64,000 nucleotides of DNA from Mustelus asterias (Eukaryota), in contig NW_027590213.1 in the NCBI RefSeq assembly GCF_964213995.1, positions 248,001 through 312,000 of the forward strand, in the 5' to 3' direction. Of the stretch, positions 20,659 to 57,444 are shown in pieces. Made by a program: the position numbers and the translations under genes. The notes beneath the pieces were generated by a model. It ran no database searches. It saw only the letters and a list, made by a program, of their open reading frames with translations, and was not told the DNA's origin. Numbering within the stretch: the stretch's first letter is position 1; every line of letters starts with the position of its first letter.

Positions 20659-20713
20659 AAACGTATTGTTTCTTGCGCGCTATACAAACAAAGCATACCG
20701 CACATAGAGAACA

Positions 20714-20795
20714 GTAAGAAGGCTCAAAACGCCAGGTTAAGGTTTATTTGGAATCACGAGCTTTCGGAGCGCTGCTCCTTCATTACGTGAGTGGA
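20714..20795 (-). mobile_element. Penelope-like element terminus with mutated hammerhead core
   Basis: Minus strand: tcac-gtaatga-aggagc agc gctcc-gaaa-gctc-gtga ttccaaataaacc. Same family as 56641-56735, but the CTGANGA box is mutated. Confidence 0.6.
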
Positions 20796-21039
20796 AAGGT
20801 AGGTTTCACAAACACGGCATTACACGCACATAGAGAAGGAAATGAGAGATTGCAGAATGTAATGTTACAGTCATAGCTAGGGTGTAGAGAAAGATCAATT
20901 TAATTAAAACATTGTTATAGATTTCAAAAGAATTAGAATAGAGTTTTAGAAGCAAAGACCGAGAGTAAAAGATAACATCAGAGAGATGCGGGGCACAGCA
21001 TGCAATAAGTCGCTATGGTCCGACGCCATCCTGATTTTT

Positions 21040-22090
21040 TTTGGTTTGTCTCTGTGTTTATCTGAGAGTGTGTGTATGTTTGCTTTTGTCTGAGTATTTA
21101 TTAGTATGTGTCCGTATGTGCGACTTTGCTTGTGTCTATTTCTCTGAGATTGTGTGACTGTTTTTGCCTGAGTCCGTGTGTGTGTGTGTGTGTGTGTGGG
21201 TGTGTGCTTGTGTCTGTTTGATTGTCTGTTCATGTGTGTGTATGCGTGTGTATTATGCTGAAAGTGCGTGTCTGTGAGTTTACAACCTTGCCTATGTTGC
21301 TTGACTGAGATCATATGTGTGCCTATGTTGGACTGTGTGCGTGTGTTTCTGTGTGCGTGACTGTGTTTGCCTGGGTGTTTGTGTGTGTGTGTTGGTGCCT
21401 ACGTGTTTTTCTGTGATTGTATGTATGCCTGAGTGTTTGACTGAGTGCTTATGTGTTTGTCTCTAAGTGTGTGTGTTTTGTCTGAGAGATTGTGTGTATC
21501 TGTGTGTTTGCGTCAGAGTGAATTTGTATGTGTGTGCCTGTGTGTTCGTTTGATAGTACAGCTGTGTGTGGGTCTGTGTGTGTATATTTGCCAGCGAGTG
21601 TGTCTGTGTGTGTGCATGCATGTCTGAGAGTGTATGTTTTCTTTGTCTGAATTTTTCTCTGTATATGGCTGTGTGCAAGAGTTTGCTTGTGTGTGTTTGT
21701 CTGAGTGTGTTCTTGTGATTGTATCTTTGTCTGTGAGTGTGTGTGTGCCTGTGTTTTTCTGAGCGTTTCTCTGTGTTTGCGAGTTTTCCTGTGTCTGTTC
21801 GTCTCAGAAATAAGTGTGCCTGCATTTGCCTGTGTGTTTGCGTGTATGTTTTCTGTACTTTTCTAAATGCGTGTGTGTGTTTGTGTCTGTGTGTGCATGT
21901 ATTTGTCTGACAGCGTGTCTGTGTGTCTGAAAGAGAGAGAAAGTATGTGTGTGCCTGTGGGTGCGTGCGTGTGTTTGTCTGAGCGAGTATATCTGTGTAT
22001 GGGCCTGTGTGTGCGAGTTTGCCTGTATCGATTTTTGTGAGATCCTGTGTGTGTGTTTCTGTGTGTGTGTGCTCGTGACTGTTTCCTAGA
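21040..22090. repeat. Degenerate (TG)n-rich low-complexity tract
   Basis: TG-rich decayed microsatellite; a similar tract lies at 27190-27930. Confidence 0.85.
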
Positions 22091-22091
22091 A

Positions 22092-22424
22092 ATCATAGAA
22101 ACCCTTCAGTACAGAAAGAGGCCATTCGGCCCATCGAGTCTGCACCGAACACAATCCCACCCAGGCCCTACCCCCACATCCCTAACCCGCTAATCCCTCT
22201 AATCTACGCATCTCAGGACACTAAGGGGCAATTTTTAGCATGGCCAATTAACCTAACCCGCATATCTTTGGACTGTGGGAGGAAACCGGAGCACCCGGAG
22301 GAAACCCACGCAGATACAAGGAGAATGTGCAAACTCCACACAGACAGTGACCCAAGCTGGGAATCGAACCCAGGTCCCTGGAGCTGTGAAGCAGCAGTGC
22401 CAACCACGACGCTACGGTGCCGCC
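22092..22424 (-). mobile_element. HE1-type SINE
   Basis: Same head, body and tail as 6027-6372. Confidence 0.9.
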
Positions 22425-22694
22425 CATTTGTCTGTTTGTGTGTGTACGTTTGCGAGTTTGCTTGTGTCTGCTTGTCTCAGTGTGTTTTTCTGAATGTGTG
22501 TGTGTGTGCGTGTGTTGGTCTCGCATTGTGTGTGTGTGTGAACATTTGAAAAAAAGAAATGTATGATATACTTGGCATTATGGTGACATGGCTCCAAGGT
22601 TAGCAAGGATGGGAACTAAACATTGAGGGCCATTCGATGTTTAGGAAGGACAGACAGAAAGCAAAAAAATGGAGTACATTGTTTCTTAAAGCGG

Positions 22695-23007
22695 GGCGGC
22701 ACGGTGGCAGAGTGGTTAGCACTGCTGCCTCAATGGCAGGGTCCCGGGTACAATTCCGAACTCGGATCACTGCCTGTGTGGAGTTGGCACATTCTTCCCG
22801 TGTCTGCTTGGGTTTCCTCCGGGTGCCTCGGTTTCCTCCCACAGTCCAAAGATGTGTGGGTCAGCTTGATTGGCCATCCGAAATTGACCCTCGTGTCAGG
22901 GGATTGACAGGATAAATAATTTGGGTTACGGAAATAGGGCCGGGATTGTGGTCGGTGCAGACTCAATAATCCGAGTGGCCTCCTTCTGCACTGTAGGGAT
23001 CCTATGT
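22695..23007 (+). mobile_element. HE1-type SINE (diverged)
   Basis: ggcggcacggtggcagagtggttagcactgctgcctc... with the conserved body. Confidence 0.85.
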
Positions 23008-24357
23008 GATATTGAAGAAAGATATTAGCACAGCGGATGTGGAAGACTGGTAAGGGAACTGTGGCCAAGCCATCGCGTACAAGGGAAGAAGAAACATACA
23101 AATTGGTAAATAAATCCATCGACCTGAGAATTTGGAGCAGTTTCAATTCAGCACAAAAGGACCCAGGAATTGATTCGGAAGGGAAAAAATAGAGTGTGAA
23201 AGTAAGAAGGCGGGAAACATAACAAATAGTTGATCCATTTGTTTTCGAAAAAATATTTAGACTCTAAACTGGTCGCCACAGATTGGAGGGTAGCTAATAT
23301 ACGCCCGCCATTCAAAAAGGGAGGTAGAGAGAAATAGGGTGAACCATAAGGCAAAGAGCCGAACATTAGAACTAGGAAATTGCTCGAATCAATTATTAAG
23401 GATTTCATAACTCAGCATTTGGAAGGCAGTGGTAAAATCAGACGAAGTCAACATGGATTTGCAAAGGGGAAATCATGCTTGGCAAATCTATTGGAATTGT
23501 GTGAGAATGTAACTAGTAGAGGTGACCAAGGAAAACTGGTGGGTATGGGTTATTTAGACTTTAAAATGCTTTCGGCAAGGTCTCATATAGCGTACGACCA
23601 TAAAAGTGGCATGGATAGTGTATTGAGCTGGATAGAAAGCTGCTTAGCAGATAGGAAGCAAAGAGTTGGCAGAAATGAGTGTTTTTCCAATTGGCTGGTA
23701 GTGACCAGTGGGGTACCGCAGGGATCCACGCTAGGAGCCCAACTGTTCTTATTGTGTATAATTGATTTCAAAGAGGGAACTAAATGTGTTTTCTCCAATT
23801 TGCAGGTGACGCAAAGTTAGGTGAGAGGGTGAGCTCTGAGAAGGATGCAGCGATGCTTCAGCCTGATTTAAACAGGCAGAGTGAATGGACATATGCATCG
23901 AAGATGCAGTATAATGTGGGCAAATGCGAGATCATCCACTTCGGAGGCAACAATAGGACGGCAGATTATTATTTGGATAAATTGAGCGGTGAATATTCAG
24001 CGACAACTTGGCATCCATGTGTATTGGCGCTGAAAGAAAGCACCACAGGTTCAGCAGGCGGTAAAGAAGGCAAGTGGTATGTTGGCCTTCATAACGACAG
24101 GATTTGAGTATAAGGATAGGGATATTTTACTGCAATTTTACAGGGCGTTGGTGAGCCCACAACTGGAGTATTGTGTGCAGTGTTGGTGTCCTTATCTGAG
24201 GAAGGATGTCCTTACTGCAGAGCGAGGGCAGTGAAGATTTACCAGACTGATTCCTGGTCTGTCGTGTGAGGAGAGACGAAGTCAGTTAGGATTATATTAT
24301 TTGGAGTTTAGAAGAGTGAGAGGGAATCTCATAGAGACTGATAAAATTCTAAAAGTA

Positions 24358-26838
24358 CATTGACTGGCAGACTCAAGTCGGTAAGGGTGGAATGGAGGAA
24401 GAGTTCTTAGAATGCTGTCGGGATAGTTTCCTTGAACAGCATGTTACGGAACCGACGAGGGAACCGAGCTATTTTGGATCTGGTATTGTGTAACGAGGTA
24501 GGTAGAATTAAGGATCTTATTGTGAAGGACCCTCTTGGGTCTAGTGACCACAATATGGTCGAATTTCTGATTCAGATGGAAGAGGAGAAAGTTTGGTCCC
24601 AAACCAGTGTCCTCTGTTTGAACAGAGGGAAATATGATAGGATGAGGGATGAATTGGCTAAGGTAGACTGGGAGAGCAGGCTGGCAGGTAGGATAGCTGA
24701 GGAACAGTGGAGGGTTTTTAAGGAGATCCTTTTCAGTTCTCAGCAAAAATATATTCCAGCAAAAAACAAGGATTGTAAGAAAAGGGAGAACCAGCCGTGG
24801 ATAACGAAGGAAATAAAGGAGAGTATTAAAATAAAAACAGCTGCGTACAGAGTGGCCAAAAATAGTGGAGAAACAAGTGATTGGGAAAAATTTAAGAAAC
24901 AAAAAAGAGAGACGAAGAAAGCGATAAAGAAAGGAAGGATAGACTATGAAGCTCGGCTAGCAATTAATATAAAAAATGATAGTAAAAGTTTTTATAAATA
25001 TATAAAAAGGAATAGAGTGGCTAGAGTGAATTTTGGACCCTTGGAGGACGAGAGGGGGGAGTTAATAGTGGGAAATGAGGATATGGCTGAGTCTTTAAAT
25101 AAGTTTTTTGTGTCGGTCTTCACGGTGGAGGACACAAATAGTTTGCCAAATATTAACGATAGAGGGTTGGCAGCAGGAGAAATACTTAATACAATTAATG
25201 TTACCAGAGAGGCAGTGCTGGGTAGACTAATGGGACTGAAGGTGGACAAGTCCCCGGGTCCGGATGGAATGCATCCCAGGGTATTGAAAGAAATGTCAGA
25301 GGTAATAGTGGATGCGTTAGTGATTATTTATCAAAACTCGTTGCATTCTGGGGTAGTGCCGGTTGATTGGAAAACGGCTAATGTTACGCCGCTGTTTAAA
25401 AAAGGAAGGAGACAAAAGGCGGGTAACTATAGGCCGGTCAGCTTAACGTCTGTAGTAGGGAAAATGCTGGAATCCATTATTAAAGAGGAGATAGCAGGGC
25501 ATCTGGATAGAAATGGTTCGATCAATCAGACACAGCATGGATTCATGAGGGGAAAGTCGTGCTTGACGAACATGTTGGATTTTTATGAAGATGTGACTAG
25601 GGCGGTTGATGGAGGAGAACCAGTGGATGCGGTGTTTTTGGATTTCCAAAAGGCGTTTGATAAGGTGCCCCATAAAAGGCTGCTGAATAAGATTAGGGCA
25701 CACGGAGTTGGGGGTAGTGTGTTAAAGTGGATTGGGGACTGGCTATCCGACAGGAAGCAAAGAGTCGGAATAAATGGGTGTTTTTCCGGTTGGAGGAAGG
25801 TAACTAGTGGCGTGCCGCAGGGATCGGTACTCGGGCCGCAACTATTTACCATTTATATAGATGATCTGGAGGAGGGGACGGAGTGTAGGGTAACGAAGTT
25901 TGCAGACGACACAAAGATAAGTGGAAAAGTGAATCGTGTGGAGGACGGAGAAGATCTGCAGAAAGATTTGGACAGGCTGAGTGAGTGGGCGAGGATATGG
26001 CAAATGGAGTATAACGTTGAGAAATGCGAGGTTATACACTTTGGAGGAAATAATAACAAATGGGATTACTATCTCAATGGAAACAAATTAAAACATGCTA
26101 CCGTGCAAAGGGACCTGGGGGTCCTTGTGCATGAGACGCAAAAGCCCAGTCTGCAGGTACAACAGGTGATCAAGAAGGCAAATGGGATGTTGGCCTATAT
26201 TGCGAAGGGGATAGAATATAAAAGCAGGGATGTCTTGATGCACCTGTACAGGGCATTGGTGAGGCCGCAGCTGGAATACTGTGTGCAGTATTGGTCCCCT
26301 TATATGAGGAAGGATATATTGGCATTGGAGGGAGTGCAGAGAAGGTTCACCAGGTTGATACCGGAGATGAGGGGTTTGGATTATGAGGAGAGGCTGAGGA
26401 GATTGGGTTTGTACTCGTTGGAGTTTAGAAGGATGAGGGGGGATCTTATGGAGACTTATAAGATAATGCGGGGGCTGGATAGGGTGGAGGCGGAGAGATT
26501 CTTTCCACTTAGTAAGGAAGTTAAAACTAGAGGACACAGCCTCAAAATAAAGGGGGGTCGGTTTAAGACAGAGTTGAGGAGGAACTTCTTCTCCCAGAGG
26601 GTGGTGAATCTCTGGAATTCTCTGCCCACTGAGGTGGTGGAGGCTACCTCGCTGAATATGTTTAAAGCGCGGATGGATGGATTCCTGAGCGGTAAGGGAA
26701 TTAAGGGTTATGGGGATCAGGCGGGTAAGTGGTACTGATCCACGTCAGATCAGCCATGATCTTATTGAATGGCGGGGCAGACTCGAGGGGCTAGATGGCC
26801 TACTTCTGCTCCTATTTCTTATGTTCTTATGTTCTTAT
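24358..26838 (+). mobile_element. Young 5'-truncated CR1 LINE
   Basis: Uninterrupted ORF2 region plus 3' UTR ending in (cttatgtt)n. One frameshift near 24463 in the endonuclease remnant. Confidence 0.95.
24432..26738 (+). CDS. CR1 ORF2 reverse transcriptase (N-terminally truncated, 768 aa open)
   Basis: Motifs [81 protein letters not shown]. Confidence 0.93.
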   Translation: MNSMLRNRRGNRAILDLVLCNEVGRIKDLIVKDPLGSSDHNMVEFLIQMEEEKVWSQTSVLCLNRGKYDRMRDELAKVDWESRLAGRIAEEQWRVFKEILFSSQQKYIPAKNKDCKKRENQPWITKEIKESIKIKTAAYRVAKNSGETSDWEKFKKQKRETKKAIKKGRIDYEARLAINIKNDSKSFYKYIKRNRVARVNFGPLEDERGELIVGNEDMAESLNKFFVSVFTVEDTNSLPNINDRGLAAGEILNTINVTREAVLGRLMGLKVDKSPGPDGMHPRVLKEMSEVIVDALVIIYQNSLHSGVVPVDWKTANVTPLFKKGRRQKAGNYRPVSLTSVVGKMLESIIKEEIAGHLDRNGSINQTQHGFMRGKSCLTNMLDFYEDVTRAVDGGEPVDAVFLDFQKAFDKVPHKRLLNKIRAHGVGGSVLKWIGDWLSDRKQRVGINGCFSGWRKVTSGVPQGSVLGPQLFTIYIDDLEEGTECRVTKFADDTKISGKVNRVEDGEDLQKDLDRLSEWARIWQMEYNVEKCEVIHFGGNNNKWDYYLNGNKLKHATVQRDLGVLVHETQKPSLQVQQVIKKANGMLAYIAKGIEYKSRDVLMHLYRALVRPQLEYCVQYWSPYMRKDILALEGVQRRFTRLIPEMRGLDYEERLRRLGLYSLEFRRMRGDLMETYKIMRGLDRVEAERFFPLSKEVKTRGHSLKIKGGRFKTELRRNFFSQRVVNLWNSLPTEVVEATSLNMFKARMDGFLSGKGIKGYGDQAGKWY

Positions 26839-28283
26839 TAGACAGGGTAAATTCAGAAAGATTATCCCAGAAGGCTGGGGAGTCCAGAACTAGGGGGTCA
26901 TAGTCTGAGGATAAGGGGTAAAACCTTTAGAACTGAGGTGAAGGAGAAACTTCATCACCCAGACAGTGGTGAATCTGTGGAATTCACTACCACAGGAAGT
27001 GATTATGACCAAAACGTTGCTGGATTTCAAGAAGAAATTAGATATAGCTCTTGGGGCTAAAGGGAGCAAGGGATTTGGAGGGAAGGCACGATCAGGATAT
27101 TCAATTTGACGATCATCCATGATCATAATGAGTGGCGAAGAAGGCTCGAAAGGCCGAAAGGCCTTTTCCGGTTTCTATTTTTTCTGTTTCTGTGTGTGTG
27201 GGTCTGTGTATGTTTTTTTGTTTTCCCTGAGCAACAGTGTATATCTTTCTCTGCATGTTCTTTTGATACTGCATGTGTGTGTCTGTCTGGGGCTCTGTGT
27301 GGGTGTATCCGTGTGTATGATTTCTGAGATTCTGTTTGTGTGTGTCTGAGTGTGTGTATTTAGCTGAAAGGCAGCGTGTGTGTATGTGTGTCTGAGTTTG
27401 TCTGAGCATTTGTGTCTGCTCTATGAGAGTGTGTGTGTTTCTATGTGCTTGTTTGAGTGTGTGTATATTTGTGTTGTCTGAGAGTGTGTGTTTGTGTTTG
27501 CTTGTCAATGTGTGTGTGTGCGCCTGTGTGTGTGTTTATCTGACAGTGTGAGTATCTATGCATGTGCTTGTGTGCATGTATGTATCTGTGTGTGTGCGTG
27601 TGTATATGTGTGTGTGTCATTTTGCCTGAGGTAATCTGTGTGTCTTTGTCTACGTCTGTGATTGTGTGTGTGTCAGCTTTTGTCTAAGAGAGTTTGCATT
27701 TTTGTCTGAGTGTGTGTGTATGCCTATGGGTGTGTGTTTGTGTGCGTGTATTTGTCTGAGCGTTTGGGTGCGTGTTTGTATGTGTGTTTGTTTCTGATTG
27801 TCTGAGTGTGTGTGCGCGTTTACCTGAGTGTGTGTGCATGTCTGAGTGTGCGTTTTTCTGTGTGCGTGTTTGTTTGAGTGTGTGTATGTGCGTGTGTGAG
27901 AGTATGTGTGCTTGAGAGAGAGAGAGTGAGAGAGATTCCTCACTATACTCCATGACTGCAAGGTTCTGGTCTTACTGATGGGGCTCCCTTGCACTGAAGC
28001 ACTTACAGTAGCTCCTGCTCATCGCATGCTCACTTTTCGATTAACTCTTTCAGCGCTGAGCCGTTAGGTTCAAATCTACAGCACACATAAGAACAGATCA
28101 ATTTCCATGTCCTGAAACCGTCGAAACAGCCCAGAATGTGCCTTTCTTTCTGCTTTTGGACTCTGCAGTTGTACTTATGGTTCTTGCCGTTTGCAGCCTA
28201 ATGTTTGAGTTGTATTATTTTCTGCACCTCTGGTCATCCAGAGGAAAGACAGAGAGAATCGTGGCATCCGCCTGTTCCCGCTG

Positions 28284-28309
28284 TGCAATGGGCAGTCAGC
28301 AGGGGGCGG
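28284..28309 (+). promoter_or_regulatory. Candidate CTCF binding site
   Basis: gTCAGCAGGGGGCGG versus core consensus CCAGCAGGGGGCGC, with TGCAAT just upstream. It lies in non-repetitive DNA. Confidence 0.45.
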
Positions 28310-28539
28310 ACGTAGGGCGCATCTGGACACTGAAACAGAAATGTTCATGCATTCATATAGGTTGCTCAATAATTAATTCAAATCTGAATAACATATTTGG
28401 AAGGTGGAGATCGTAGGACAATGACCATGTCACTGGAGAGTCCCAGACTAATATTATGGGCACACGGGTTCAATCCAATTCCCCACCCAGCACCCTCAGT
28501 GCACCGAATGCAATTTGAATTTTTGCATTCAGCAATAAC

Positions 28540-28827
28540 TTTTAAGTTTATTTATTTGTGTCACAAGTAGGCTTACATTAATACTGAAATAATGTCACTG
28601 TGAAAATCCTCTAGTCGTCACACTGCGGCGCCTGTTCCAGTGCATTGATGTAGAATTTAGCTTGGTCAATGCACCTAACCAGTACATCTTTCAGACTGCA
28701 GGAGGAAACCGGAGCAGACACGGGGACAACATGCACACTTCGCACAGATAGTGACCCAAGTCAGGAATCGAACCCGGGTCCCTGGTGCTATGATGCAGCA
28801 GTGCTAACCACTATGTTAATGTCCCGC
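28540..28827 (-). mobile_element. HE1-type SINE (diverged)
   Basis: Homologous to 4451-4750. Confidence 0.8.
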
Positions 28828-30970
28828 CAATCTGGGTTTAGATAGGAAGGCGAGAAAGAACATACTTGTTATAGATGGGGTGCACCAAAAGTTCACCAGA
28901 CTGATACTTGGGATGTAAGCATTGTCCTTTGAGGAGAGATTGAGGTGTGCATTCAATTAAATTCTGAAGAATGGGAGATCTCATTGAAAGATATAAAATT
29001 CTGACAATTGCAGGATTATGACCCAGCAGTACTGAAGGAACTGCCGATATATTCCCAAGTCGGGATGGTGAGTGACTTGGAGGGTGAATCTCCTTTTGAT
29101 GGTGTCCTCAGGTATCTATTGCCCTTGTGTTTTTACCGTGGTAATGGCTGTGGCTCGGGGAAGTATTGTCTGGTGCTCTGGAAACACGAGTTCAAATCCC
29201 ACCAACGGTAACAGGTGAAATTTAAATTTAATTAATAAAAATGTAGAATTGAAAATTCGGCTGAATAATAGAGAACTTAAGAAAACTGTCATCCGTTGTT
29301 GCAAAAGCACATTCTGCGCACCAATGTTGTACCAATGCCCACGGGAGTTTGGAAGAAAATGGGGGTTCTTATAGAAACGCATACAATTATGAAAGGAATA
29401 GATAAGATAGAAGCAAGGAGGTTGTTTCCATGGCAGATGAAATTAGAACTAAGGGACAAGATCTCAAAATAAAGATGAGGAGATTTTGGGCTGTGTTGAG
29501 GAGGAACCTCTTCATTTAAATGGCTGTGAATCTATAAATCCCTGCCCAGTGAAGCAGTTGAGGCTACATCGTTAAACGTTTTTAAGGCAAAGATAGATTT
29601 TTGAGCAGTAAAGGAATTCAGGGTTATGGTGAGCGGGCGGGTAAGCGGAGCTGAGCCCATGAAAAAATCAGCCATGATCTTATTGAATGGCGGATCAGGC
29701 TCGGAGGGCCAGATGGTCTATTCCTGCTTCTAGTTTTTATGTTCTTTCAGAAAGGAAATCTGCCTACAACCTGGACTATGTGTGAGACAAGACCCAGAGA
29801 AATGTGGCCGACATTTAGCTATCTTCTGAAATGTTTAGTGAGACAAGAGGCGAGAGGCTGCAGCAACCACATGGGGCGGAAGAATATAAATAACTCGTCA
29901 TCTCTTACATCTTCCAGCCCTCATGCAAAGACATCAATCTGAAACCTTAACTCGGTTTCTCACTTGCACAGTTACTGGCTGGCATGATGCAAGCAGCGTT
30001 TCCTGTTTTTGTCTGAAATGCTGCACTTTGGCCTCTTACGTTCACGCTGGTTTCTTCCCTGAAAAGAAATGCGTGGCTCATTTCGAGAATTCCAACGCAC
30101 AGCCTGTTTTCATCTTCACTCTCCCTGCCTACGAGTCCCTCCTTAGCCTGCTGCAATGCTTCAGTGAAGCCCCAAGGGCACTCTTTAAAAATAAGGGGTC
30201 GCACATTTAGGAGAGGAAGAGTGGCGAGGTTTTCCTCTCAGAGGGCCATGTGTCCCTAGAAGTCCCTTCCTCAGAAGGCAGTGGAAGCAGTCTTTCAATA
30301 TTTTTAAAGGCAGAAGGAGCTAGATTCTTAGTAAACAAGGAGGGTGAAAGGTGATCAGTGTTGGCAGAAGGTTATAATAAGATCAGCCATAAACTTATTT
30401 ACGGGCAGAGCAGGCCGGAAGTGACCAACTCCTACTTCTCAGTAGCCTGTGTGTTACTGTATACATATTAAAATTTCGCGGTGGCTTGGTAAGGCACACG
30501 TGTAAGAGACGGAGCAAGAACTGTTCCTGAATCGAAGATGAGCAAGTCGGGTTTACATTGCCAATTGTTAGGGTTTGGGATTCATTGTCTCAAAGACCAG
30601 AGTAAACATTTTCCGTGGTGACTTTCAAAAGAGAATGATTACAAAATCGAAAATATAACATGTCGCGGGACATGTGCCAACGGCAAATGCAGTGTTTTTT
30701 TTGTAGCTCATTGAGATAGGAAGCATGCGCTCGTTAGGCCGAATTGCCTCGTTCTTTAATGTATGAACCGGATGAGTGACAGGATTGACTGGAGTGCAAC
30801 ACTTTCATTTGATTCACTAATAGTTGCTGCCTGAAGAATCGGTTAAACAGATACTTGTTAATTCTTGGATTCTTTCTCAATAATTTTCATTCATTGGGCT
30901 ATGAGTGTTGTTCGCAAGGCCAAAAATTGTTGCGAGTCCGAAACGCAAATTACTGCGGATTCTATAATCC

Positions 30971-31160
30971 AAAACAAAAACAAAACATTCTGGAATATCT
31001 CAGTGGGTCTGACAGCATCTGTGGAGAGAGAATAGAGCCAAAGTTTCGAGTCTCGATGACGATTCGTCAGGGCCATCCGGACTCGAAACGCTAACACTAT
31101 TCTCTCTTCACAGATGATGTCAGAAGTGCAGAGCTTTTCCAGCATTTTCTGGTTTTGTGT
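30971..31160. mobile_element. Foldback (inverted) Penelope-like termini
   Basis: The ~90-bp arms are reverse complements of each other. The minus strand has CTGACGA...gactc-GAAA. Confidence 0.65.
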
Positions 31161-33802: not shown

Positions 33803-34120
33803 GGCACAGTGGTTAGCTCTGCAGTGCCAGAGGTACGGGTTCGATTCCAGCCTTGGGTGGCTGCCTGTGTTGAGTTTGCACGTTCTCGCCGTGTCTGCGT
33901 GGGTTTTATCCGGGTGCTCTGGTCTCCCTCAGTCCAAGGATGTACAGATTGGTTAGATTGGCCATGGCAAAATGCACCTTTGTGTCCCACAGATGTGCAG
34001 GGAGGTGGATTCACCGTGGGCAGAGGGGAGGGTCTGGGTTGATTTCTCTTTCGGAGAATCAGTGCAGACTCGATGGGCCGAACGGCCTCTTTCTGCAGTG
34101 TATGGCTTTTACGATTCTAT
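33803..34120 (+). mobile_element. HE1-type SINE (old)
   Basis: ggcacagtggttagc...gggttcgattcc head and conserved body. Confidence 0.75.
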
Positions 34121-35325
34121 TATTATATTCTATGGTGAACACGGGCACAAAACCCATCATGATCAATTGTTCCTCCCTCCCCCTTCAGGGGTGTTGTAAC
34201 GGCATGACGATTAATCCAGAAAGCCAGGGCTAAAGCTTTGGACACACATGAGGATTGAATTCCTGCCATGGCAGTTGGAGAAATCTGAATTCAATAAAAG
34301 CAACCTGGAATTCAACAATCGAACCATGAGTCAATTGTTGTTAAAACCCATCTGGTTCACTACCTGAGACTTCAAGTACAACACCATGGTAAATGCAACC
34401 CATCCGGTTCAATGGTGATTAGGGATGGGAAATACATTCTGGCCCTGCCGGATATGCACGTACCGCTGGGTGAAGCAACAAATACATTGTGTGTGGGAGT
34501 CGCTCGCCTGGCGAACATTTATAGCCCTTCCAAATGGCCCTAATCATTGCTGCAGCCAATGTAGTTAAACCAGGCACAGGAGCAGCGTTTCGCTTTGGGT
34601 ATTGGGAACATTTTGGGATTCTTCTCGCTTTTCCATCTCTTCAATTCGTCATTCCTATCAGGAATTACCTTAACTCCCGTTGTTTTTCGTTGTTATATTT
34701 TTCGGCGGGTTGGGGAGGGGGCAGGGCGGGGCTGGGGGTGGGGGGTGGTGGGGGGCGGGGGGGAGGATGGGAGTGGGGGGACGGCAGAACAATGGTTAGA
34801 CCACCAAATATAACAACGAAAAACAATGGGAGGAATTAGTAAGTTTGCAGACGAAACAAAGGGCTGCAAACTTACTAATCAATCCAGTTACATTTCCTTA
34901 AGGTAATTCCTCCCATTTTCGGCGGGTTAGGGAGGGGAGTGGGGCGGGGGGGGGGGGGGGGGGCGGGGGGAGAATAGGAGTGGGGGGACGGCAGAATAAT
35001 GCATGCTTGCCTTCATCAGCCGGGGCATTGAATTTAAAGATTGGCAAGTCATGTTGCAGCTTATAGAACCTTAGTTAGGCCGCACTCGGAATATAGTGTT
35101 CAATTCTGGTCGCTACACTACCAGAAAGATGTGGAGGCTTTGGAGAGGGGGGGTACATACAAGCTTTACCGGGATGTTGCCTGGTATGGAGGGCATTAGC
35201 TATGAGGAGAGATTGGGGAAACTTGGGATGTTCTCACTGGAACGACGGAGGTTGAGGGGTGACCTGATAAAAATGTACAAGATTATGAGGGGCATTGACA
35301 GAGTGGGTAGTCAGAAGCTTTTTTC

Positions 35326-38300
35326 AACAAAGAACAATACAGTACAGGAACAGGCCCTTCGGCCCTCCAAGCCCGCGCCGCTCCCTAGTCCAAACTAGAC
35401 CATTCTTTTGTATCCCTCCATTCCCACTCCGTTCATGTGGCTATCTAGATAAGTCTTAAACGTTCCCAGTGTGCCCGCCTCCACCACCTTGCCTGGCAGC
35501 GCATTCCAGGCCCCCACCACCCTCTGTGTAAAATATGTCCTTCTGATATCCGTGTTAAACCTCCCCCCCCCCCACCCCCCGCCTCACCTTGAACCTATGA
35601 CCCCTCGTGAACGTCACCACCGACCTGGGAAAAAGCTTCCCACCGTTCACCCTATCTATGTCTTTCATAATTTTAGACACCTCTATTAGGTCTCCCCTCA
35701 TCCTCCGTCTTTCCAGTGAGAACAACCCCAGTTTACCCAATCTCTCCTCATAACTAAGCCCCACCAAACCAGGCAACATCCTGGTAAACCTCCTCTGCAC
35801 TCTCTCTAAAGTCTCCACGTCCTTCTGGTAGTGTGGCGACCAGAACTAGATGCAGTATTCCAAATGCGGCCGAACCAACGTTCTATGCATCTGCAACATC
35901 AGACCCTAACCTTTATACTCTATGCCCCGTCCTATAAAGGCCAGCATGCCATATGCCTTCTTCACCACCTTCTCCACCTGTGACGTCACCTTCAAGGATC
36001 TGTGGACTTGCACACCCAGGTCCCTCTGCGTATCTACACCCTTTATGGTTCTGCCATTTATCGTAAAGCTCCCCCCTACATTAGCTCTACCAAAATGCAT
36101 CACTTCGCATTTATCAGGATTGAACTCCATCTGCCTTTCTTTGCCCAAATTTCCAGCCGATCTATATCCATCTGTAGCCTCTGACAATGTTCCTCATTAT
36201 CCCCAATTCCAGCCAATTTCGTGTCGTCTGCAAACTTACTGATCACCCCAGTTACACCTTCTTTCAGATCGTTTATGTAAATCACAAACAGCAGAGGTCC
36301 CAATACAGAGCCCTGCGGAACACGACTAGTCACAGGCCTCCAGCCGGAAAAGACCCTTCCACTACCACCCTCTGTCTTCTGTGACCAAGCCAGTTCTCCA
36401 CCCATCTAGCCACCTCCCTCTTTATCCCATGAAATCCAACCTTTTGCACCAACCTACCATGAGGGACTTTGTCAAACGCTTTATAAAGTCCATATAGACG
36501 ACATCCACGGCCCTTCCCTCGTCAACGATTCTAGTCACTTCTTCAAAAAACTCCACCAGGTTAGTGAGCATGACCTTCCTCTCACTAAACCATGCTGACT
36601 ATCGTTAATGTGTTTATTCCTTTCTAAATGCGCATACATCCTATCTCTAAGAATCCTCTCCAACAACTTCCCTACCACTGACTTCAAGCTCACTGGCCAA
36701 TAATTAACTGGGTTATCCTTCCTACCCTTCTTAAATAACGGGACCACATTAGCTATCCTCCAATCCTCTGGGACCTCACCTTTGTCCAGTGACGAGACAA
36801 AGATTTGCGTCAGAGGCCCAGCGATTTCAACTCTCGTCTCCCTGAGCAGCCTTGGAGAGATTCCATCAGGCCCTGGGGATTTGCCAGTCTTTGTATTCTC
36901 TAAAAAACCTAACACTTCCTCCCTTGTAATGGAGATTTTCTCTAATGGTTCAACACTCCCCTCCGAGACACTCCCAGTCAACACATCCCTCGCCTTTGTG
37001 AATACCGATGCAAAATATTCATTTAGGATCTCCCCTACTTCTTTGGGCTCTAAGCATAATTCCCCACTTTTGTCCCTGAGATGTCTGATTTTTTTCCCTG
37101 ACAACCCTTTTGTTCCTAACGTATGAATAAAATGCCTTGGGATTCTCCTTAATCCTGTCTGCCAATAACATTTCGTGACCCCTTTTTGCCCTTCTAATTC
37201 CTCATTTGAGTTCTTTCCCACTTTCTTTGTGTTCCTCCAGAGCTCCCTCCGTTTTTAGCTGCCTGAACCTAACATACGCCTCTCTTTTCTTTTTGACCAG
37301 TCCCTCAATTACCCTCTTTATCTGCGGTTCTCGAATTTTACCCTTCCTATCCTTCTTTTTTACAGGCACATGCCTATCCTGCAGCCCTAACAACTGTTCC
37401 TTAAAAGACTCCCACATGCCAGATGTGGATTTACCCTCAAACAGCCTCTCCCAATCAACAACTGCCAATATCTGCCGAATCCCACTAAAGTTAGCCTACC
37501 CCGAATTCACACCTTACCCTTGGGACACCACTCATCCTTTTCCATCGCTATCCTAAAACTAACAGAGTTGTGGGCACTATTTGCCACATGTTCCCCGACT
37601 GAAATTTGAAGACCTGACCGGGCTCATTCCCCAGTACTAGGTACAGTGTAGCCCCCTCTCTAGTCGGGCTATCTACATATTGTTCCAAAGAACCTTCCTG
37701 TACGCATTTTACAAATTCCTCCCCATTCAGAGTCCCAGTTCTAAGCGATTTCCAGTCTATACCAGGGAAACTGAAGTCTCCCACTACAACAACCCTATTT
37801 TTCCTGCACCTATCCAGTATCTCCTGACATATCTGTTCTTCCACTTCCCTTGGGCTCTTGGGGGGCCTGTAGTATGCCCCCAACATAGTGGATGCGCCCT
37901 TCCTTGTTCTGAGCTCCACACACAGTGACTCGTTATACGAGCCCTCTGAATTGTCCTCCCTCTGCATCGCTGTAATATGTTGTCTAACGAATACTGCTAC
38001 TCCCCCACCTCTGTTGGCCCCTCCTCTGTCTCACCTAAAACACTTGTACCCCGGAATATTCAGCTGCCAGTCCTGTCCCTCTTTCAACCAAGTCTCTGTC
38101 ACCGCAACTACATCCAAATTCCTCGTAAGCATTAAGGCCCTACGTTCGTCTGCCTTACCTGCTACGCTCCTTGCATTGAAGTAGATGCACTCCAGACCTC
38201 CAGGCCCAGTGAGGTCATCCTCCCCCAGAGTGATCTTCTGCTTTCCCAGCCTTGTCCTGGCCCCAAGCTCGCCTCCAGCCTCTACACTTGTAGACCTAAT

Positions 38301-39040
38301 TTTTTGATCCCCACCCCCCTGCCATATTAGTTTAAACCCACCCGAACTGCACTAGCAAAATTCCCAGCCAGGATATTCGTGCCCTTCCAATTTAGTTGTG
38401 ACCCGTCCTTCTTGTACAGGTGCCATCCTCTCTTGAAAAATTCCCAATGATCCAGGAAAATGAAGCCCTCCCTCCTGGACCAGTCCTTTAGCCAAGCGTT
38501 CAATTGTACTAACTCCCTATTCCTAGCCTCATTGGCACGAGGCATTGGGAGCAGCCCAGATATTGCCACCCTAGGGGCCCTACCTTTTCGCCTATTTCCC
38601 AACTCCCTGAATTGCTCTCGTAGGATCCCCCTGCTCTTCCTCTCTATGTCTTTTGCACCAATGTGTACAACGACATCCGTTTCTTTATCATCCCCTTTTA
38701 ATATGCCTCCTATCCGCTCGGAGACATCCAGTACCCCAACACCAGGTAGGCAGACTACCATCCTAGAGTCCCGTTCGCACCCACAGAATCACCTGTCCGT
38801 GCCTCTAACCGACGCGTCCCCTACCACTATTGCTCTCCTAATTCCTCTCTTTCCTTTCTGGGCCACAGAGCCTGACTCTGTGCCAGTGACCTCGTCACTG
38901 TAGCTTACCCCTGGAGAGTCATCTTCCTCCACAGTATCCAAAACAAGATACTTGTTTTGGCGGGGGACAACCACAGGTGACCCCTCCACTAATTGCTCAC
39001 TAAGAGCTGAGTCCTTCCTGCTATGAGAGACAAACACTGA
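35326..39040 (-). mobile_element. Near full-length decayed CR1 LINE (ORF1 SGNH-esterase-like + ORF2 EN/RT), nested in an older + strand CR1
   Basis: ORF1: AIVVGDASVRG, VVCLPG, VVVHIG, YKKDG..LN..G. ORF2: [39 protein letters not shown]. The host element breaks at gtcagaagctttttt (35325) and resumes at agggtggaagagtc (~39041-39405). Confidence 0.92.
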
Positions 39041-40189
39041 AGGGTGGAAGAGTCAATTACTAGGGGGCATAGGTTTAAGATGCGATGGGCAAGTTTTAAA
39101 AGAGGAGTACGAGGCGAGTTTTTTCACACTGAAGGCGGTGGGTGCCTGGAATTCGCTGCTTGGGAAGGTAGTGGAAGCAGATACAATTGTTAGTTTTAAA
39201 GGGCGTCTGGACAAATACATGAATAGGATGGAAATAGAGGGATATGGTTCCCGGAAGGATAGGGGGTTTTAGTTCAGTCGGGTAGCATGGTCGGTGCAGG
39301 CTTGGGAAGGGGGGTGGGGGGAGGGCGGGGGTGGGGGCGGGGGCGGGGGGGCGGGGGCGGCGAAGGCCCTGTTTCTGTGCTGTAATTTTTTGTACTTTGT
39401 TCTTTGTGCTGGAATGGCTATCGAGCGAATGAACCGCAGCCCTGAGACCAGGGGCTTCAAACCTGTGGACTTTCAATTGTTGGACTTCAAGAAATAAATT
39501 GGCTCCATTTGGCGGGATCTGCCATGGGGAGCTGGTATCCTCATGATGGGCTGAGTGGCCTCCATTTGTGCTGCGCGACTACAAGAGCTCTCTGTCAACC
39601 AAACCAAATGCATGTCTTGCCATCACGTTAACAAAGAGACAGAAGACACCCTTCATTAAAGACTGCAAATTTATTCAATATTATAAGCGATGCATATGAA
39701 AAAATAACAAGGTGGCAGATAGGCACAAAGGTGTTATTAACGAACCAGAAGAGCACAGGACGGAGGAGCAGAAGTAGACCATTCGGCCCACCGGAGCTGC
39801 TTCGCCTTTCAATGAAATCATGGTTGGTTTGATATTATCCTCAACTCCACTTTACCACCTTAGCCCCATAACTCTCGCTTCCCCTGACTAACCGGATGAT
39901 CTTAAATGTGTACGAATGTCCCATCTGTAAAATAACCTGAGAGCAATAACCTGATTTTAGGCTAAGCTCATGGCGAGATGTTCAAAAACTCTTGTTCATC
40001 TTACTTGTGAAATGCCGTGTCATGATAAAGCTCTGCACGGTGGCAAGTGGTGGCTCGATTATCTCTAAGGGCCCAGATGCACAGGCTGGGGTTTGGTGCC
40101 TCCGTGGCACTGGGAGGAAAATCTGGAGTCCAAGATTAAGTACGGGAGAGAGAATATCTCCTTGGCAACAATCTAAAAGTTTGATGAAA

Positions 40190-40752
40190 ATCCAATCAGA
40201 TCCTTGCTGATTTAATGTATCTTACGCTCTTAAATTGCATGCATTAAAATACAATGTTTAAAATAACTACCAGAGTAAAACAACCAAAAGGAACATGTGA
40301 GGTGCCATTACCTAGATTGCCCTGTAAAGGGCTGCCATTGTCACTATGGGCTGAGTGGCTGCTTTCTCCGGAATAGGATTCTACTATTCTAAGCAAAGAA
40401 TATAAAAATCGAAGTTCTATACGTCCTAAAATTGAAAATGCTGTTTTCAAAAATGTCTCCGACACTAATGCAGGCAGACACCATGTCAATGCTAGCTCCA
40501 CGCTGTTGCTGAAATGCATAATTGAAATGTTTATGTAGCATAAGCAGTAGAATTCACGCAGAACCACGAATTTCAAATCAAAATAACAGTGGAAAAAAGT
40601 GACCGAAAAGAGGATCTTTTAAAGTTAAGTCGCCATTTAAAACAAGCGAGATTGAATTGCTTGAAGCGGAACTTCTGATCAGGAAGCCTCTGGATTTTGA
40701 TACCCCAGTCAATGAGTTCACACCTGAATCCATTTCATCGTCCAATGCAGTT
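40190..40752 (-). other. TRDC: TCR delta constant exon 4 (3' UTR), predicted
   Basis: Exon 3 ends TGA-G|GTAAG, which implies a further exon. Acceptor ttgctccttccattccaaaCAG at 40753-40755. Poly(A) signal ATTAAA 40211-40216 or AATAAA 39670-39675, so the 3' end is uncertain. Confidence 0.6.
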
Positions 40753-41325
40753 CTGTTTGGAATGGAAGGAGCAACAGTAGTAGCACATCAAAGAGTCAGC
40801 AAGCAAAGAACACCTTGTATCTTTAGGGTCTCCATTAACATTCTCCAATAATATTCTCAGAAGCCACTGCAATTGCACAAGAACCCCGACAGTGCAGAAG
40901 GATGCGATTTGGCCCATAGAGTCTGCACCGACTCTCCGAAAGAGCCACGCAGCTCAAGACCAAGGGATGGGCGGAAAAAGTTAGGCTAGTCAGTGACACC
41001 CATAATTAAACAATAATCTGGAGAGGTTTAAGAAGTCAAGGCTGCGATTGGGAGCGGGGGTTGGCGGGCGGGGGCGGGGGGGGGGCGGGGGGGGGGCGGC
41101 GGGGGCGGGGGGGGGGCGGTGGTGCGGTGGCAAGGGAGGGATGAAAAGCGATGAGGATGGGGCACTGGAGTAAGAGTTCGTTTGTCTAAATGCATCCAAG
41201 TTAATGCTCACTCCACGGGTTAGTTTCAGCGTCTGCCTTAACAGTGGCCTCGCGAGATCCCGTCAATGGTCATTGTTCATCACAGTTTGTCTTTCTTGGC
41301 ATGCATTCAGGTGACCGACCTTACC

Positions 41326-41435
41326 TCAAAATAGCCACACCCTGGCCGTCATCATGACATTGAAGACAATGCTCTTGAAAAACAAAATTCTTAGCCCCAT
41401 CACCGTCAAAGACAGAAAGTTCACCCTCAGTCGAT
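41326..41435 (-). CDS. TRDC: TCR delta constant exon 3 (connecting peptide/TM/cytoplasmic)
   Basis: ttatttggCAG|...TGAG|GTAAG; DRLRVNFLSLTVMGLRILFFKSIVFNVMMTARVWLF*. Carries the alpha/delta-type TM Arg and Lys and the FN..MT motif. Confidence 0.95.
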
Positions 41436-41873: not shown

Positions 41874-41936
41874 CGTTTTCCGTGTCAGTTGATTCTGTCA
41901 AGGGATCATTTCGACCTGTAGGGCATTTAGGTTTAC
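41874..41936 (-). CDS. TRDC: TCR delta constant exon 2 (hinge with interchain Cys)
   Basis: ttttttgcccttcCAG|63 nt|GTATGT; phase 1-1; GKPKCPTGRNDPLTESTDTEN. Confidence 0.9.
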
Positions 41937-42419
41937 CTGGAAGGGCAAAAAAGACATTTGACTTATTAAGCAAGCAAGTGACATTACTGTAACCATGTTT
42001 GTTCTCAATGTCATTTTGAATAATGTTGTTGTCATAACCAAAAGCCACGAAGAAAGTAAGAATCAAACAGCACGATTGGACTTGTTCACTTGATTATTCA
42101 CAACGGAGAAACATTGGTAGCTCTGCCGTTTAGTTCGGCCCAGATCTGAGTTCAAAGAGTGCAGGATCGATTCCCCATCAGGGATTAAAACCCAGGATCC
42201 AGGGCCGTTCCATCAGTGCAGTATTTCACTGTCTTCCGAAAACGTCGTGAAACGGAGGCCTGATTTGAGCTCTGCAGTGGATTAAATGATATCAGGGCAT
42301 TTCTCCAGAGGAGCGGGGTTCTCCAGTACCCTGGTTAGTATTTAATACTTCCCTAAACTCGGTGATGCACCAGTAGCTGCGGCTCCTGGACACTGCCCTG
42401 AATTATAATAGTTAGCTCT

Positions 42420-44200
42420 TATTATTTTTATTCATTTACGGAATGTGGACATCGCTGACAGGTCAGCATTTATTGCCAATCCCTAATTGCCCCCTTCAGA
42501 AGGTGGTTGTGAGTCTCCTGCTTGAACCTCTGCAGTCTGTCAGGTGGACGTACACACACAGTGCTGTTAGGGAAGAAGTTCCACCATTTTGACGCAGCGA
42601 CAGTGAAGGAAATGCCGAAACATTTCCAAGTCAGGATGCTGAGTGACATGGAGGGTAACGTCCAGATGATGGCGTTCCCAGGTATCTGCTGCCCTTGTCC
42701 TCCGAGATGATAACGGTCGTGAGTTTGGAAGATTCAGCGGAAGGAGACTTGGAGAGTTACTGCTGTGTATATTGTGGATGGCACACACTGCTGCCACTGT
42801 GCATCGGTGGTGGAAGAAGTGGATGTTTGTGAATGGAGTACTTAATGCTAGAACGGCACAGTGGCACAGTGGTTAGTACTGCTGCAACCCCCCTCACCCC
42901 CTCCCCGCCCGCCGCCACTCCCCCACCCCCCCCCACCTCCCCGCCCACAGCGTCAGGGACCTGTGTTCGATTCCCGGCTTGGGTGATTGTCTGTGCAGAG
43001 TCTGCACGTTTTCCCCGTGTCAGCGTGGGTTTGATCCGGGTGCTCCGGTTTCCTCCCACAGTCCGAAAGACGTGCTGATTAGATGCATTGGCCGTGCTAA
43101 ATTCCCCCTCAGTGTACCCGAACAGGCACAGAGTGTGGCGACTATGGGATTTTCACAATAACTTCATTGCAGTTTTAATGTAAGCCTACTTGTGACACTA
43201 ATAAACAAACTGTTAATCAAGCGGAGCTGCTTTGTCCTGGGTCGTGTCAAATTTCTGAGTGTTGTTGGAGCTGCATTCAACGAGGCAAGTGGCGAATACA
43301 CTACCACAGTCATGATTATGTCTTGTGGATGGTGCAGAGAATTTGGGGGATGAGGAGATACGTTACTCACCACAGGATTCCCAATCTCCGACATTCTCTT
43401 GCAGCCACAGCACTTATATGGATAGTCCAGTTCAGTTTCTGAGCAACGTTAACCCTCAGGATGTTGATAGTGGGGGTTGACCTGATAGAAGTCTACAGGA
43501 TTATGAGAGGCATGGACAGAGTGGATAGTCAGAAGCTTTTTCCCAGGGTGGAAGAGTCAATTACTCGGGGGCATAGGTTTAAGGTGTGAGGGGCGAGGTT
43601 TACAGGAGACGTACAAGGCAGATTTGTTACACAGAAGGTGGTGCGTGCCTGGAACTCGCTGCCGGGTGAGGTAGTGGAAGGAGATACGATCGTGAGTTTT
43701 AAGGGACACCTGGACAAATACATGAATAAGATGGGAATAGAGCGATATAGTCCCCGGAAGGGAAAGGGGTTTTAGTTAAGTCGGGCAGCATAGTCGGTGC
43801 AGGTTTGGAGGGCCGAAGGACCTGTTCCTGTGCTGTAATTTTCTTTGTTCTTTGTTCATTGTTTCAGTCATGGTAATGCCATTACATGTCAAGAGCCGGT
43901 TGTTAGCTTCTTTCCTGTTGGAGTTGGTCATTGCCTGGAACATGTGTGGCGCAAATGTTACTTGCAGCTTGTCAGTCAAAGCCTAGGTATTGTCCAGCTA
44001 TTGGTGCATTTGTAATGCACTACTTCAAGATCTGAGGTGTCATGAATGGTGCTGAAAATTATTCAGTCATCAGCGAACATCCCAACTTCTGACCTTACAA
44101 TGGATTGAAGGTGATTGATGAAGCAAATGAAGCTGGTTAGGCCTGAGACACTGAGGAACTCCTGCAGTGAGGTCCCCAGACTAGGATAATTGACAGTCAA
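42420..44200 (-). mobile_element. Decayed CR1-superfamily LINE, interrupted by a SINE and a CR1 3' end
   Basis: Remnant DKLQVTFAPH.FQAMTNS...LTCNGIT is typical of the post-RT region. A + strand CR1 3' end lies at ~43475-43857. Confidence 0.6.
42854..43210 (+). mobile_element. HE1-type SINE with a C-rich expansion in the head
   Basis: ggcacagtggcacagtggttagtactgctgc...; tail cttgtgacactaataaa. Confidence 0.85.
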
Positions 44201-44651
44201 TCATTAGTCAGCTAACCTTTCAAAAAGACTACACTTTGAGTGACGATGACACCGAGAGTCCTTCGGTCGTTAAGAGGATGGATAATATTTAGTGCAAGTT
44301 CTTCCTGTCATAAAACATTCTCAGAGGAGGCAGTGGCGCAGTGGCATTGTCACTGGACTGGTAATCCAACGACCCAGAATGCTGACCTGGGGATGGCAGC
44401 TGCGAAATTTGAACATTTTTTTAAAAATTGGAATTAAAAGTTTCATGATGACCCTGAAACCATTGTCGATTATCGTTAAAACTCACTGGTTCACTAACTT
44501 CCTTTAGCGAACGAAATCTGCCGTCCTTACATGGTCTGGCCGGCAAGTGACTCTTAAATGTCCTCTGCTGAAGGGCAATTTAGGACGGGCAATAAATGTT
44601 GGCCAAGCCAACGACACCCACATCACGTGAACGAAAATAAAATAAACTTAC

Positions 44652-44963
44652 CAATTTCAGCTGTGGGCGGGATGTTTACTGAGTAATTTCGATTATCGTG
44701 AAATGCCTTGCACGTGATGTTTGGCGATTCCTCGGATTGGGTGAAAGAGAGAAAACCCGAGCTCCTGTAATTCCCGCCCTCCAATAGGACACTGGGTCTT
44801 GTCACATTGGCCTCCTGGCCCGATCCCGTGTACAGGGAGAGCTTGATTGTCTTGGGCGAGAAGTCCGAGGCCAAGCAAACTGCAGCTGTGTCGATGCCGG
44901 TGGCTCCCCGTGGCACTGGCGGGTAAAAGACGCTCAATTTTGGTTCTACCGGGCCTTTCGCCT
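44652..44963 (-). CDS. TRDC: TCR delta constant exon 1 (Ig C1 domain)
   Basis: ttttCAG|312 nt|GTAAG, phase 1-1; AKGPVEPKLSVFYPP...AAVCLASDFSPKTI...GNYRSSGFL...NITCKAFHDN. Both Ig cysteines are present and the exon is in frame with the J donors. Confidence 0.93.
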
Positions 44964-45173
44964 CTGAAAATTTAATAAATAAAAGGAAATAATCAGAATC
45001 CAACAGAGTGACCTCCTCAAACCTGCTGAGCCATTCGATTAGACCCGCATTTTTTCTGTGTCTTAACCCTATGTGAGTTTCTCCATGAATTTACCGAATG
45101 CTGAGACTGGATAATTAGGGCTTTTTCGCTTGGCACAGAGAAGGCTGAGGAGTGACGCCTCTCTTTCTCTCTC

Positions 45174-57362: not shown

Positions 57363-57444
57363 TTCAGTAGTAACAGCTACTACAAAATATGGACCCAGCC
57401 ATATGAACACAGGGCTAGCTCACATTCAGTTTGTATCATGTCAC

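Follow-up and report, generated by a model that had tools for sequence, protein, structure and literature searches.

The window, the whole 64,000-nucleotide stretch of Mustelus asterias DNA analysed here, carries the D-J-C end of one of 19 TCR-delta copies that lie apart from both TCR-alpha arrays of the assembly. Each copy likely rearranges as a self-contained minicluster, so that alpha rearrangement would usually leave delta in place; the probability given to this reading is about 0.75. The features of the window are the following.

20165..20657 (approximate), no strand: GC-rich short-period tandem array, end of the shared unit of the window copy
20658..41325, minus strand: 3' flank of the duplicated unit, common to sister clusters, with repeats and LINE remnants and without J, V or RSS
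41326..41435, minus strand: C-delta transmembrane/cytoplasmic exon with stop, open frame
41874..41936, minus strand: C-delta hinge exon with interchain Cys, 63 nt
44652..44963, minus strand: C-delta Ig-domain exon, 312 nt, open frame, GT-AG
52366..52425, minus strand: C-proximal J-delta, open, 12-RSS at 52,426
53214..53263, minus strand: J-delta, open, 12-RSS at 53,264
57316..57375, minus strand: J-delta with FGKG, probably a pseudogene in the window copy, with an in-frame stop upstream and no canonical RSS
58933..58995, minus strand: J-delta, open, 12-RSS at 58,996
59847..59914, minus strand: degenerate J-like segment, FGxG frame absent
61256..61315, minus strand: J-delta 1, open, 12-RSS at 61,316
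61565..61581, minus strand: D-delta, 17 nt, with 5' 12-RSS and 3' 23-RSS
62675..62702, minus strand: lone 12-RSS with neither a 3' RSS nor a J frame behind it

All C-delta splice sites in the window are GT-AG and the reading frame is open. The Ig exon is 52-54% identical to whale shark and sevengill TCR models and the entire C region is 57% identical to the catshark model named IgWVTCRD in PMC12227049 Table S1. Overall, identity of the C region is 47-57% to delta-type models of other sharks versus about 31-34% to the C-alpha Ig exons of the same genome, which points to homology with shark C-delta rather than C-alpha. The homologue searches returned five non-Mustelus delta chains from four species, too few for copy counts in other sharks. 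A scan of both strands of all 64 kb for RSS gave 10 hits corresponding to nine sites, every one at 48.5 kb or above, and the five matches to a strict FGxG-J motif all fall within 52.4-61.3 kb. The signal layout V(23) - (12)D(23) - (12)J with few J segments was found for the delta genes of the window. In order, the window copy has NAR V (22-RSS), D (12/12) and J (23-RSS); next a supporting V-delta without a leader (23-RSS) and an Ig-like V (23-RSS); and then D (12/23), several J (12-RSS) and C-delta. The supporting V-delta has a splice acceptor and an extra Cys after the first Cys, and a leader was not seen; the supporting V-delta of NAR-TCR is described as leaderless with a Cys in CDR1 (PMC1845163). 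In its segments the window copy agrees with NAR-TCR, having an upstream IgNAR-related V with its own D and J and a leaderless supporting V-delta. Two V-D-J reactions within one unit would yield a three-domain NAR-TCR delta chain, and joining of the Ig-like V would yield a two-domain chain.

The sequence-only reading had held that nothing but repeats and enhancer- and CTCF-like sites follows C-delta, without J, RSS or V from 41.3 kb to the window start. The absence of segments is borne out by RSS scans, FGxG-J scans and a J-alpha profile alike: positions 1-41,000 contain zero RSS and zero strict J, and four loose J-motif matches below 41.3 kb all lack the J pattern. The profile, built from 173 J-alpha segments of the same genome and searched against 264 kb of the scaffold (nhmmer --max, E<=1), matched only at 52.4-61.6 kb of the window. 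The 141 kb read downstream of the window C-delta yielded no J-alpha, no V and no segment flanked by RSS, genome-wide searches placed no C-alpha on its scaffold, and no J followed the C exon within 34-35 kb in the four of four other copies read that far. The enhancer- and CTCF-like sites were not confirmed. The only stretch shared with C-alpha 3' flanks (29.0-29.1 kb), considered as an alpha-enhancer-like element, is a 124-bp match to both flanks that aligns as an interspersed repeat, and this candidate was rejected. By eye, the same repeat seems also present in C-delta intron 1. Down to 20,658-20,676 the window is collinear, at 92-98% identity, with all four sister copies for which this part was read; beyond that it departs at the GC-rich tandem array, and the sister copies remain collinear among themselves. 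The unit boundary near 20.7 kb is real, and both a duplication junction and a misjoin are possible there.

Only two C-alpha genes, 74% identical, were found in the genome (56 of 56 candidates scored). Their arrays are on scaffolds C71 and C546, and neither is preceded by C-delta, bar one gap on C546; that gap aside, the canonical nested TRA/TRD order, in which C-delta is succeeded on its own strand, and within about 100 kb, by the J-alpha array and C-alpha, is absent. On C546, V-alpha genes lie at 32-63 kb, which is 58 kb before the J array. Two broken D-delta relics at 113.6 and 120.8 kb are 80% identical to the window D and have an 8-nt deletion in the 23-spacer; the first pseudo-J is at 121.1 kb, and the interval from V-alpha to it is gap-free. 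The assembly gap (129,550-129,749) falls inside the 5' end of the J array, 8 kb after the relics and first pseudo-J, and could hide a C-delta. It is possible, though unlikely, that the clusters are extra orphans and that the assembly lacks a normally nested delta, in a multiplied form of what is known from chicken or flounder. This would fit the gap, the breakage of the region across many scaffolds, and the single TRD model that PMC12227049 Table S1 places immediately ahead of TRA, in the same orientation, in both catshark (at 16 kb) and stingray (at 80 kb). Against this, homologues of the pseudo-J segments before the gap are present in the 5' end of the C71 array, a gap-free stretch, the C71 interval matching the gap is itself gap-free and lacks C-delta, the 3' RSS of the C546 D relics is broken, and no C-delta, D or V was detected in 274 gap-free kb before the C71 J-alpha array. 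The sequence-only reading had proposed that delta does not sit nested ahead of J-alpha in this genome, or else that this is a separate delta locus. The latter option proved correct and the un-nested, separate delta stands, but the proposal was understated, the window being one of 19 copies with neither alpha array preceded by delta. Nor does the layout extend to sharks in general, given the catshark and stingray tables. DAD1, tried as a marker of the ancestral alpha site, gave eight matches, none on C71, C546 or C181, and was uninformative.

The 19 C-delta genes are intact (107 of 107 candidates scored; 19 Ig exons at 84-100%), with a transmembrane exon 3.3-5.6 kb beyond each Ig exon. All are open with GT-AG splice sites and amount to 16 distinct coding sequences and 15 proteins. 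Three to five J accompany every copy and D is present in 18 of 19, the scaffold of the remaining one ending before D. Sixteen copies sit on separate small scaffolds that may or may not be linked to alpha; the other three lie at 7.14, 11.04 and 12.27 Mb of the 20-Mb scaffold C71 and are 95-97% identical. Mutual identity over 9-12 kb ranges from 91 to 99.9%, giving 10 groups at a 99.0% cut, 12 at 99.5% and 18 at 99.8%. Among the pairs at 99.4-99.9%, some may represent alleles or have been duplicated falsely, and the figure of 10 treats all pairs at or above 99% as alleles; TCR-delta is here represented by at least ten clearly distinct copies among the 19. That the whole set is an assembly artefact, made from one or two loci whose haplotypes were left uncollapsed or which were falsely duplicated, is very improbable and already largely refuted. 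The many small scaffolds, one pair at 99.9% identity and the end of the window unit at a tandem array would suit such an artefact. Against it stand a divergence that reaches 9% across 9-12 kb, private insertions (with an intron 2 of 409 to 2,592 nt), the location of three copies on a single 20-Mb scaffold, near-identical copies in groups of three and of four, and transcript variants. In the public run X4, contigs stop at C-delta exon ends and continue into J1 and hinge, documenting splicing, and four C-delta variants over 47 nt were present in this independent run, whose species is coded and whose sample is possibly pooled. All four two-site combinations of these variants occur among the 19 copies (6, 5, 4 and 4). 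The spliced J-C-hinge sequences of the coded runs X4 and X6 are 95-100% alike, use the J-delta 1 type of the window and are assignable to neither the window copy nor a species. In run X3 only one contig, of 557 nt, covered the exon, and it is not readable as copy number. The pN/pS of the Ig exon among copies is 0.3-1.6, on few changes, and in a protein tree with outgroups on long branches the copies were not recovered as one clade.

Repeated units with their own V, D, J and C, as in shark IgH miniclusters, were found. Most delta copies have their own variable segments, and a NAR-TCR cassette (NAR J and supporting V) lies upstream of 15 of 19, the DNA between cassette and D having been read in five of these 15. 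By motif check alone, two of the 15 cassettes failed as intact V. The one NAR V compared further, that of the C123 copy, had shark VNAR structures as its best matches. IgM or other Ig-type C exons lie near several clusters, one IgM C exon (95% to Triakis IgM) lying about 9 kb before a delta cluster. For three of four further NAR cassettes no C-delta was found within the 43-53 kb read, and shared use of C genes may therefore occur. It is improbable that the clusters act as a single dispersed translocon, with V segments of one cluster joined to those of another and with many delta copies still lost through long-range V-alpha to J-alpha joins. Such a translocon would accommodate these cassettes without C, the three C71 delta clusters, which share the strand of J-alpha and precede it by 6-11 Mb, and joints fixed between different units. 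The own V of each cluster is however 13-55 kb from C, and V genes lie nearer to alpha on both C71 and C546, so that alpha joins need not cross delta clusters; TCR V-like genes on C71 occur at 14.4-16.1 Mb, between the delta clusters and J-alpha, and at 19.2-19.4 Mb, downstream of C-alpha. A very long-range deletion on C71 could still remove the three same-strand clusters.

RAG-type joints are present in several delta clusters. In the C138 copy an IgM VH is fused onto delta D-J-C, with an IgH D joined to D-delta, and in C110 the D-delta 12-RSS is joined to the RSS of a NAR V; both joints are fixed and link different units. Three clusters, 97-99% alike, share one and the same V-D junction. A signal joint at 14.38 Mb of C71 was tested as the reciprocal of the V-D joint at 11.02 Mb, and its RSS spacer mismatches that V family. 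Reinsertion of excision circles as the origin of the clusters was not supported, the flanks that were read showing neither a signal joint of J-alpha type nor sequence homologous to the 5' region of J-alpha.

Returning to miniclusters apart from alpha, a delta block may have been copied from an ancestral alpha/delta locus into a field of IgM clusters, the nested J-C-delta being lost and D relics left before one J-alpha array. Segmental duplication would then have raised the number of blocks (91-99.9% identity), germline RAG activity would have fixed some V-D joins, and alpha-beta versus gamma-delta exclusion would rest on regulation, not excision. We lean, with somewhat less confidence than in the main reading, towards a shark lineage that turned a nested-translocon delta into 10-19 miniclusters in the style of antibody genes, each of them dedicated to a NAR-TCR cassette, with the nested copy lost and germline RAG still rebuilding the units, leaving complete signal-plus-coding joint pairs and a hard-wired IgM-VH/TCR-delta gene.

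To our knowledge, delta nested before J-alpha is nearly universal. The elasmobranch TCR alpha/delta genes are called a translocon within an antigen-receptor complex in the available part of PMC12227049, and that locus resembles the present one in NAR-TCR cassettes, Ig-like V beside D-J-C-delta, a J-alpha array, C-alpha and intermixed IgM clusters, but M. asterias has 19 C-delta and none seen before J-alpha. As far as the available parts of the sources go, mammalian TCR-mu (TRM) is likewise a delta-derived double-V chain in repeated [V-D-J - V-(D)-J - C] clusters outside TRA/D, and its supporting V is germline-joined in marsupials (PMC7615758, PMC3457774). TCR-mu has however a VH-like V, a diverged C and a normal nested delta, whereas the shark clusters are delta itself with a NAR V, and a nested delta was not found. 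The shark clusters do not belong to TCR-mu, with its VH-related V and mu-type C: their N-terminal V is NAR-type and their C is delta, and the layout alone is alike. The newt has a comparable un-nested delta and two TRA loci, but its TRD is on another chromosome and without D according to PMC12698447, a 2025 paper calling this separation previously unreported in any jawed vertebrate; the shark TRD instead consists of numerous V-D-J-C units, of which at least three share a scaffold with a TRA. Cartilaginous-fish IgH miniclusters are also repeated V-D-J-C cassettes, some partly germline-joined, in the parts available of PMC6795676, PMC2193156 and PMC2193153, among which a review states that shark TCR genes are in translocon form; the delta units differ in coding for T-cell receptors and in having several J and two or three V each. 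Many self-contained delta clusters without a nested copy contrast with the description of shark TCR loci as translocons, unlike the shark Ig clusters. In the portions of the literature covered, with the nurse shark and elephant shark locus maps outside the comparison, no description of a multi-cluster TRD in shark was found.

The layout makes testable the need for delta excision in alpha-beta/gamma-delta exclusion, how one T cell expresses one of many delta loci, and locus-level convergence of the TCR-mu and NAR-TCR clusters. If the miniclusters are true, they would be a living intermediate for the origin of VH-delta and TCR-mu loci and a natural test of whether delta deletion matters to T-cell lineage choice. 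The galliform second TRD locus is, in the parts available of PMC3457774 and PMC12698447, also a V-D-J-C-delta outside TRA/D, but it is a single addition to a conventional nested locus, whereas the shark has 19 copies and a nested one was not found. As in that galliform locus, an IgM VH serves as V in the C138 copy, and a fixed copy of this make-up (IgM VH - D - J - C-delta) represents a step such as VH-delta origin models put forward.

The TCR-delta gene in the window is on the − strand and is represented by its 3′ half, with one D flanked by 12/23 signals, four intact-looking and two degenerate J segments and a C-delta of three exons in open frame. The sequence-only reading had held that no J-alpha, V or RSS lies downstream of C-delta, and this was borne out. 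An RSS/J scan revealed no RSS, J or V below 41.3 kb of the window, and in 264 kb of its scaffold, C181, a profile made from 173 J-alpha segments of the same genome matched the delta J segments of the window and nothing else, the 141 kb downstream of C-delta included. By inspection, the long frames at 1-41.3 kb resemble LINE remnants and simple repeats. A 775-codon open LINE reverse-transcriptase-like frame (24,411-26,738, + strand) is inserted in the flank of this copy, and of four sister copies, collinear C-delta clusters elsewhere in the genome, no fewer than three lack the matching stretch. A 12-RSS-like site at 48,517 in the J-C intron is kept in many copies and has no J frame behind it. 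Near 20.7 kb there is a real boundary: the window is collinear with four sister copies as far as 20,658-20,676, past which these remain mutually collinear and the window changes to a GC-rich tandem array. Either a duplication junction or a misjoin could account for the boundary; in both cases the conclusion is unaffected, since the same four copies contain no J segment in the 34-35 kb after C.

The window corresponds to positions 248,001-312,000 of C181 in a 3.68-Gb assembly, and NCBI gives the label Mustelus asterias to a protein whose C region is identical. Searching the assembly with the C-delta Ig exon of the window gave 19 copies (84-100% identity) spread over 17 scaffolds; the 20-Mb scaffold C71 carries three. 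All 19 have a TM exon, open frames and GT-AG sites, and between them they encode 15 proteins from 16 different coding sequences. Across the roughly 12 kb surrounding C their identity is 91-99.9%. Merging leaves 10 groups at 99.0%, 12 at 99.5% and 18 at 99.8%, so that the floor is 10 C-delta genes against an assembled count of 19. Real paralogy of the copies is very likely. Synonymous divergence was at most 0.093 in the seven pairs tested, which makes the expansion recent; no selection on the Ig exon was demonstrated among the copies compared, and a tree of the copies gave no resolution. At 94-97 kb of scaffold C973, a delta-type D and two J segments without C-delta in the following 27 kb form a truncated cluster.

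Upstream of the window, C181 completes a unit in the order NAR V-D-J, supporting V, Ig-like V and the window's D-J-C.

Segments upstream of the window on C181
342-341 kb: NAR-type V, D and J
337 kb: leaderless supporting V
325.6 kb: intact Ig-like V, 58% to the V of a catshark delta model

Three to five J segments accompany every copy, and a D is present in 18 of the 19. The NAR cassette (NAR V-D-J plus supporting V) lies 13-55 kb before C in 15 copies, of which five were read through without interruption and the other ten from both ends. Of the four copies lacking it, two are near scaffold ends; in the third, D is joined to a broken alpha-type V, and the fourth has an IgM VH. Several clusters have Ig-type C1 exons nearby (150 scored of 793 candidates), and the single one checked is IgM. 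Tandem 61-bp repeats behind the supporting V (C181 336,500-336,740), each with a 23-RSS, vary in number between clusters.

Seven different sequencing runs were examined out of 20 listed, none of which is recorded as RNA. The C-delta contigs of run X4 are spliced, because their ends fall at exon borders and the sequence continues into J1 and hinge. This run has four C-delta variants over window positions 44,780-44,826, and the assembled copies include every variant letter listed for it as well as each of the four two-site combinations. More than two variants suggests that several C-delta genes are transcribed, unless the sample was pooled or chimeric. Run X11, from a more distant organism, gave two C-delta contigs (12 listed differing sites in about 147 nt), X6 one spliced and X3 one genomic C-delta contig. 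C-delta duplication as such is not unique, since in the sevengill shark a single contig carries two models with C-delta.

The genome has only two C-alpha genes, 74% identical, and both TCR-alpha loci were located without an assembled C-delta before either.

TCR-alpha loci and associated features
C71 18.37-18.43 Mb: TCR-alpha locus, about 43 J hits (about 18.37 to 18.42 Mb)
C546 32-63 kb: V-alpha genes, before the D-delta relics
C546 121-242 kb: TCR-alpha locus, about 155 J hits, C-alpha at 240 kb
C546 121 kb: pseudo-J segments, after the D-delta relics
C546 129.55 kb: assembly gap between pseudo-J and main J hits

No C-delta, D or V was found in the 274 gap-free kb upstream of the C71 J array, from which 6.1 Mb separate the closest C-delta. 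A C-delta hidden in the C546 gap seems unlikely from the sequence, because homologues of the pseudo-J segments begin the gap-free C71 array. It is likely that the genome has no nested C-delta copy. The sequence-only observation that delta is not nested before J-alpha is real, and the phenomenon is larger than that reading had seen. Two D-delta relics after the V-alpha genes of C546 (80% to the window D, 23-spacer short by 8 nt) are the best evidence from which we infer that a nested layout was ancestral here and then lost.

Shark TCR genes are translocons according to PMC12227049 and PMC6795676, and Table S1 of the former has TRD directly before TRA in catshark and stingray, whereas no C-delta is assembled before J-alpha in M. 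asterias. According to PMC12698447, the TRA/TRD separation seen in newts is new among jawed vertebrates; for flounder and galliform birds the paper cites one extra TRD locus each. The literature searched, with the main nurse shark locus papers outside it, held no description of multi-cluster TRD in a shark. The nearest layout is the platypus TCR-mu cluster, of a different family from TCR-delta. The parts of the unit, their order and 12/23 compatibility are seen directly, as is the lack of an assembled nested delta. Delta chains of the NAR-TCR or the Ig-V kind would arise by rearrangement within a unit, alpha joins with nearby V genes would leave the delta copies in place, and lineage exclusion would then be regulatory; that the copies are working miniclusters of this kind is given a probability of 0.75.

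RAG-type joins, probably germline, are present in several clusters.

Pre-joined and rearranged segments
C119 553.7 kb, C96 1,455.1 kb, C436 213.7 kb: supporting V-delta joined to D, identical junction
C850 36.3 kb: supporting V-delta joined to D
C138 217,400-218,650 (−): IgM-type VH, intact, 76-78% to IgM of nurse shark and Triakis, with leader and 23-RSS
C71 near 14,376,800: perfect signal joint, D-delta 5′ 12-RSS to V-type RSS
C110 near 113,700: perfect signal joint, D-delta 5′ 12-RSS to V-type RSS
C122 393,165-398,928: 5.77-kb inversion, NAR D 3′ 12-RSS to supporting V 23-RSS

All four V-D fusions are open, leaving a single step, to J; the junction common to three shows that this join is older than the duplication of those copies. 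They resemble marsupial TCR-mu, where the supporting V is likewise pre-joined. On C138, behind the VH, an Ig-type 12-RSS and D are fused onto the delta D, and J-delta and C-delta come next, making an assembled and apparently inherited VH-delta gene. Three perfect signal joints were seen. The NAR cassettes at those on C71 and C110 have lost D-J-C, and the inversion on C122 has both ends exactly on RSS heptamers, with its coding joint and its perfect signal joint both kept. Joints found in a single copy may be somatic in origin. NAR D is also pre-joined to NAR J at C173 95.1 kb and C90 1,134.1 kb.
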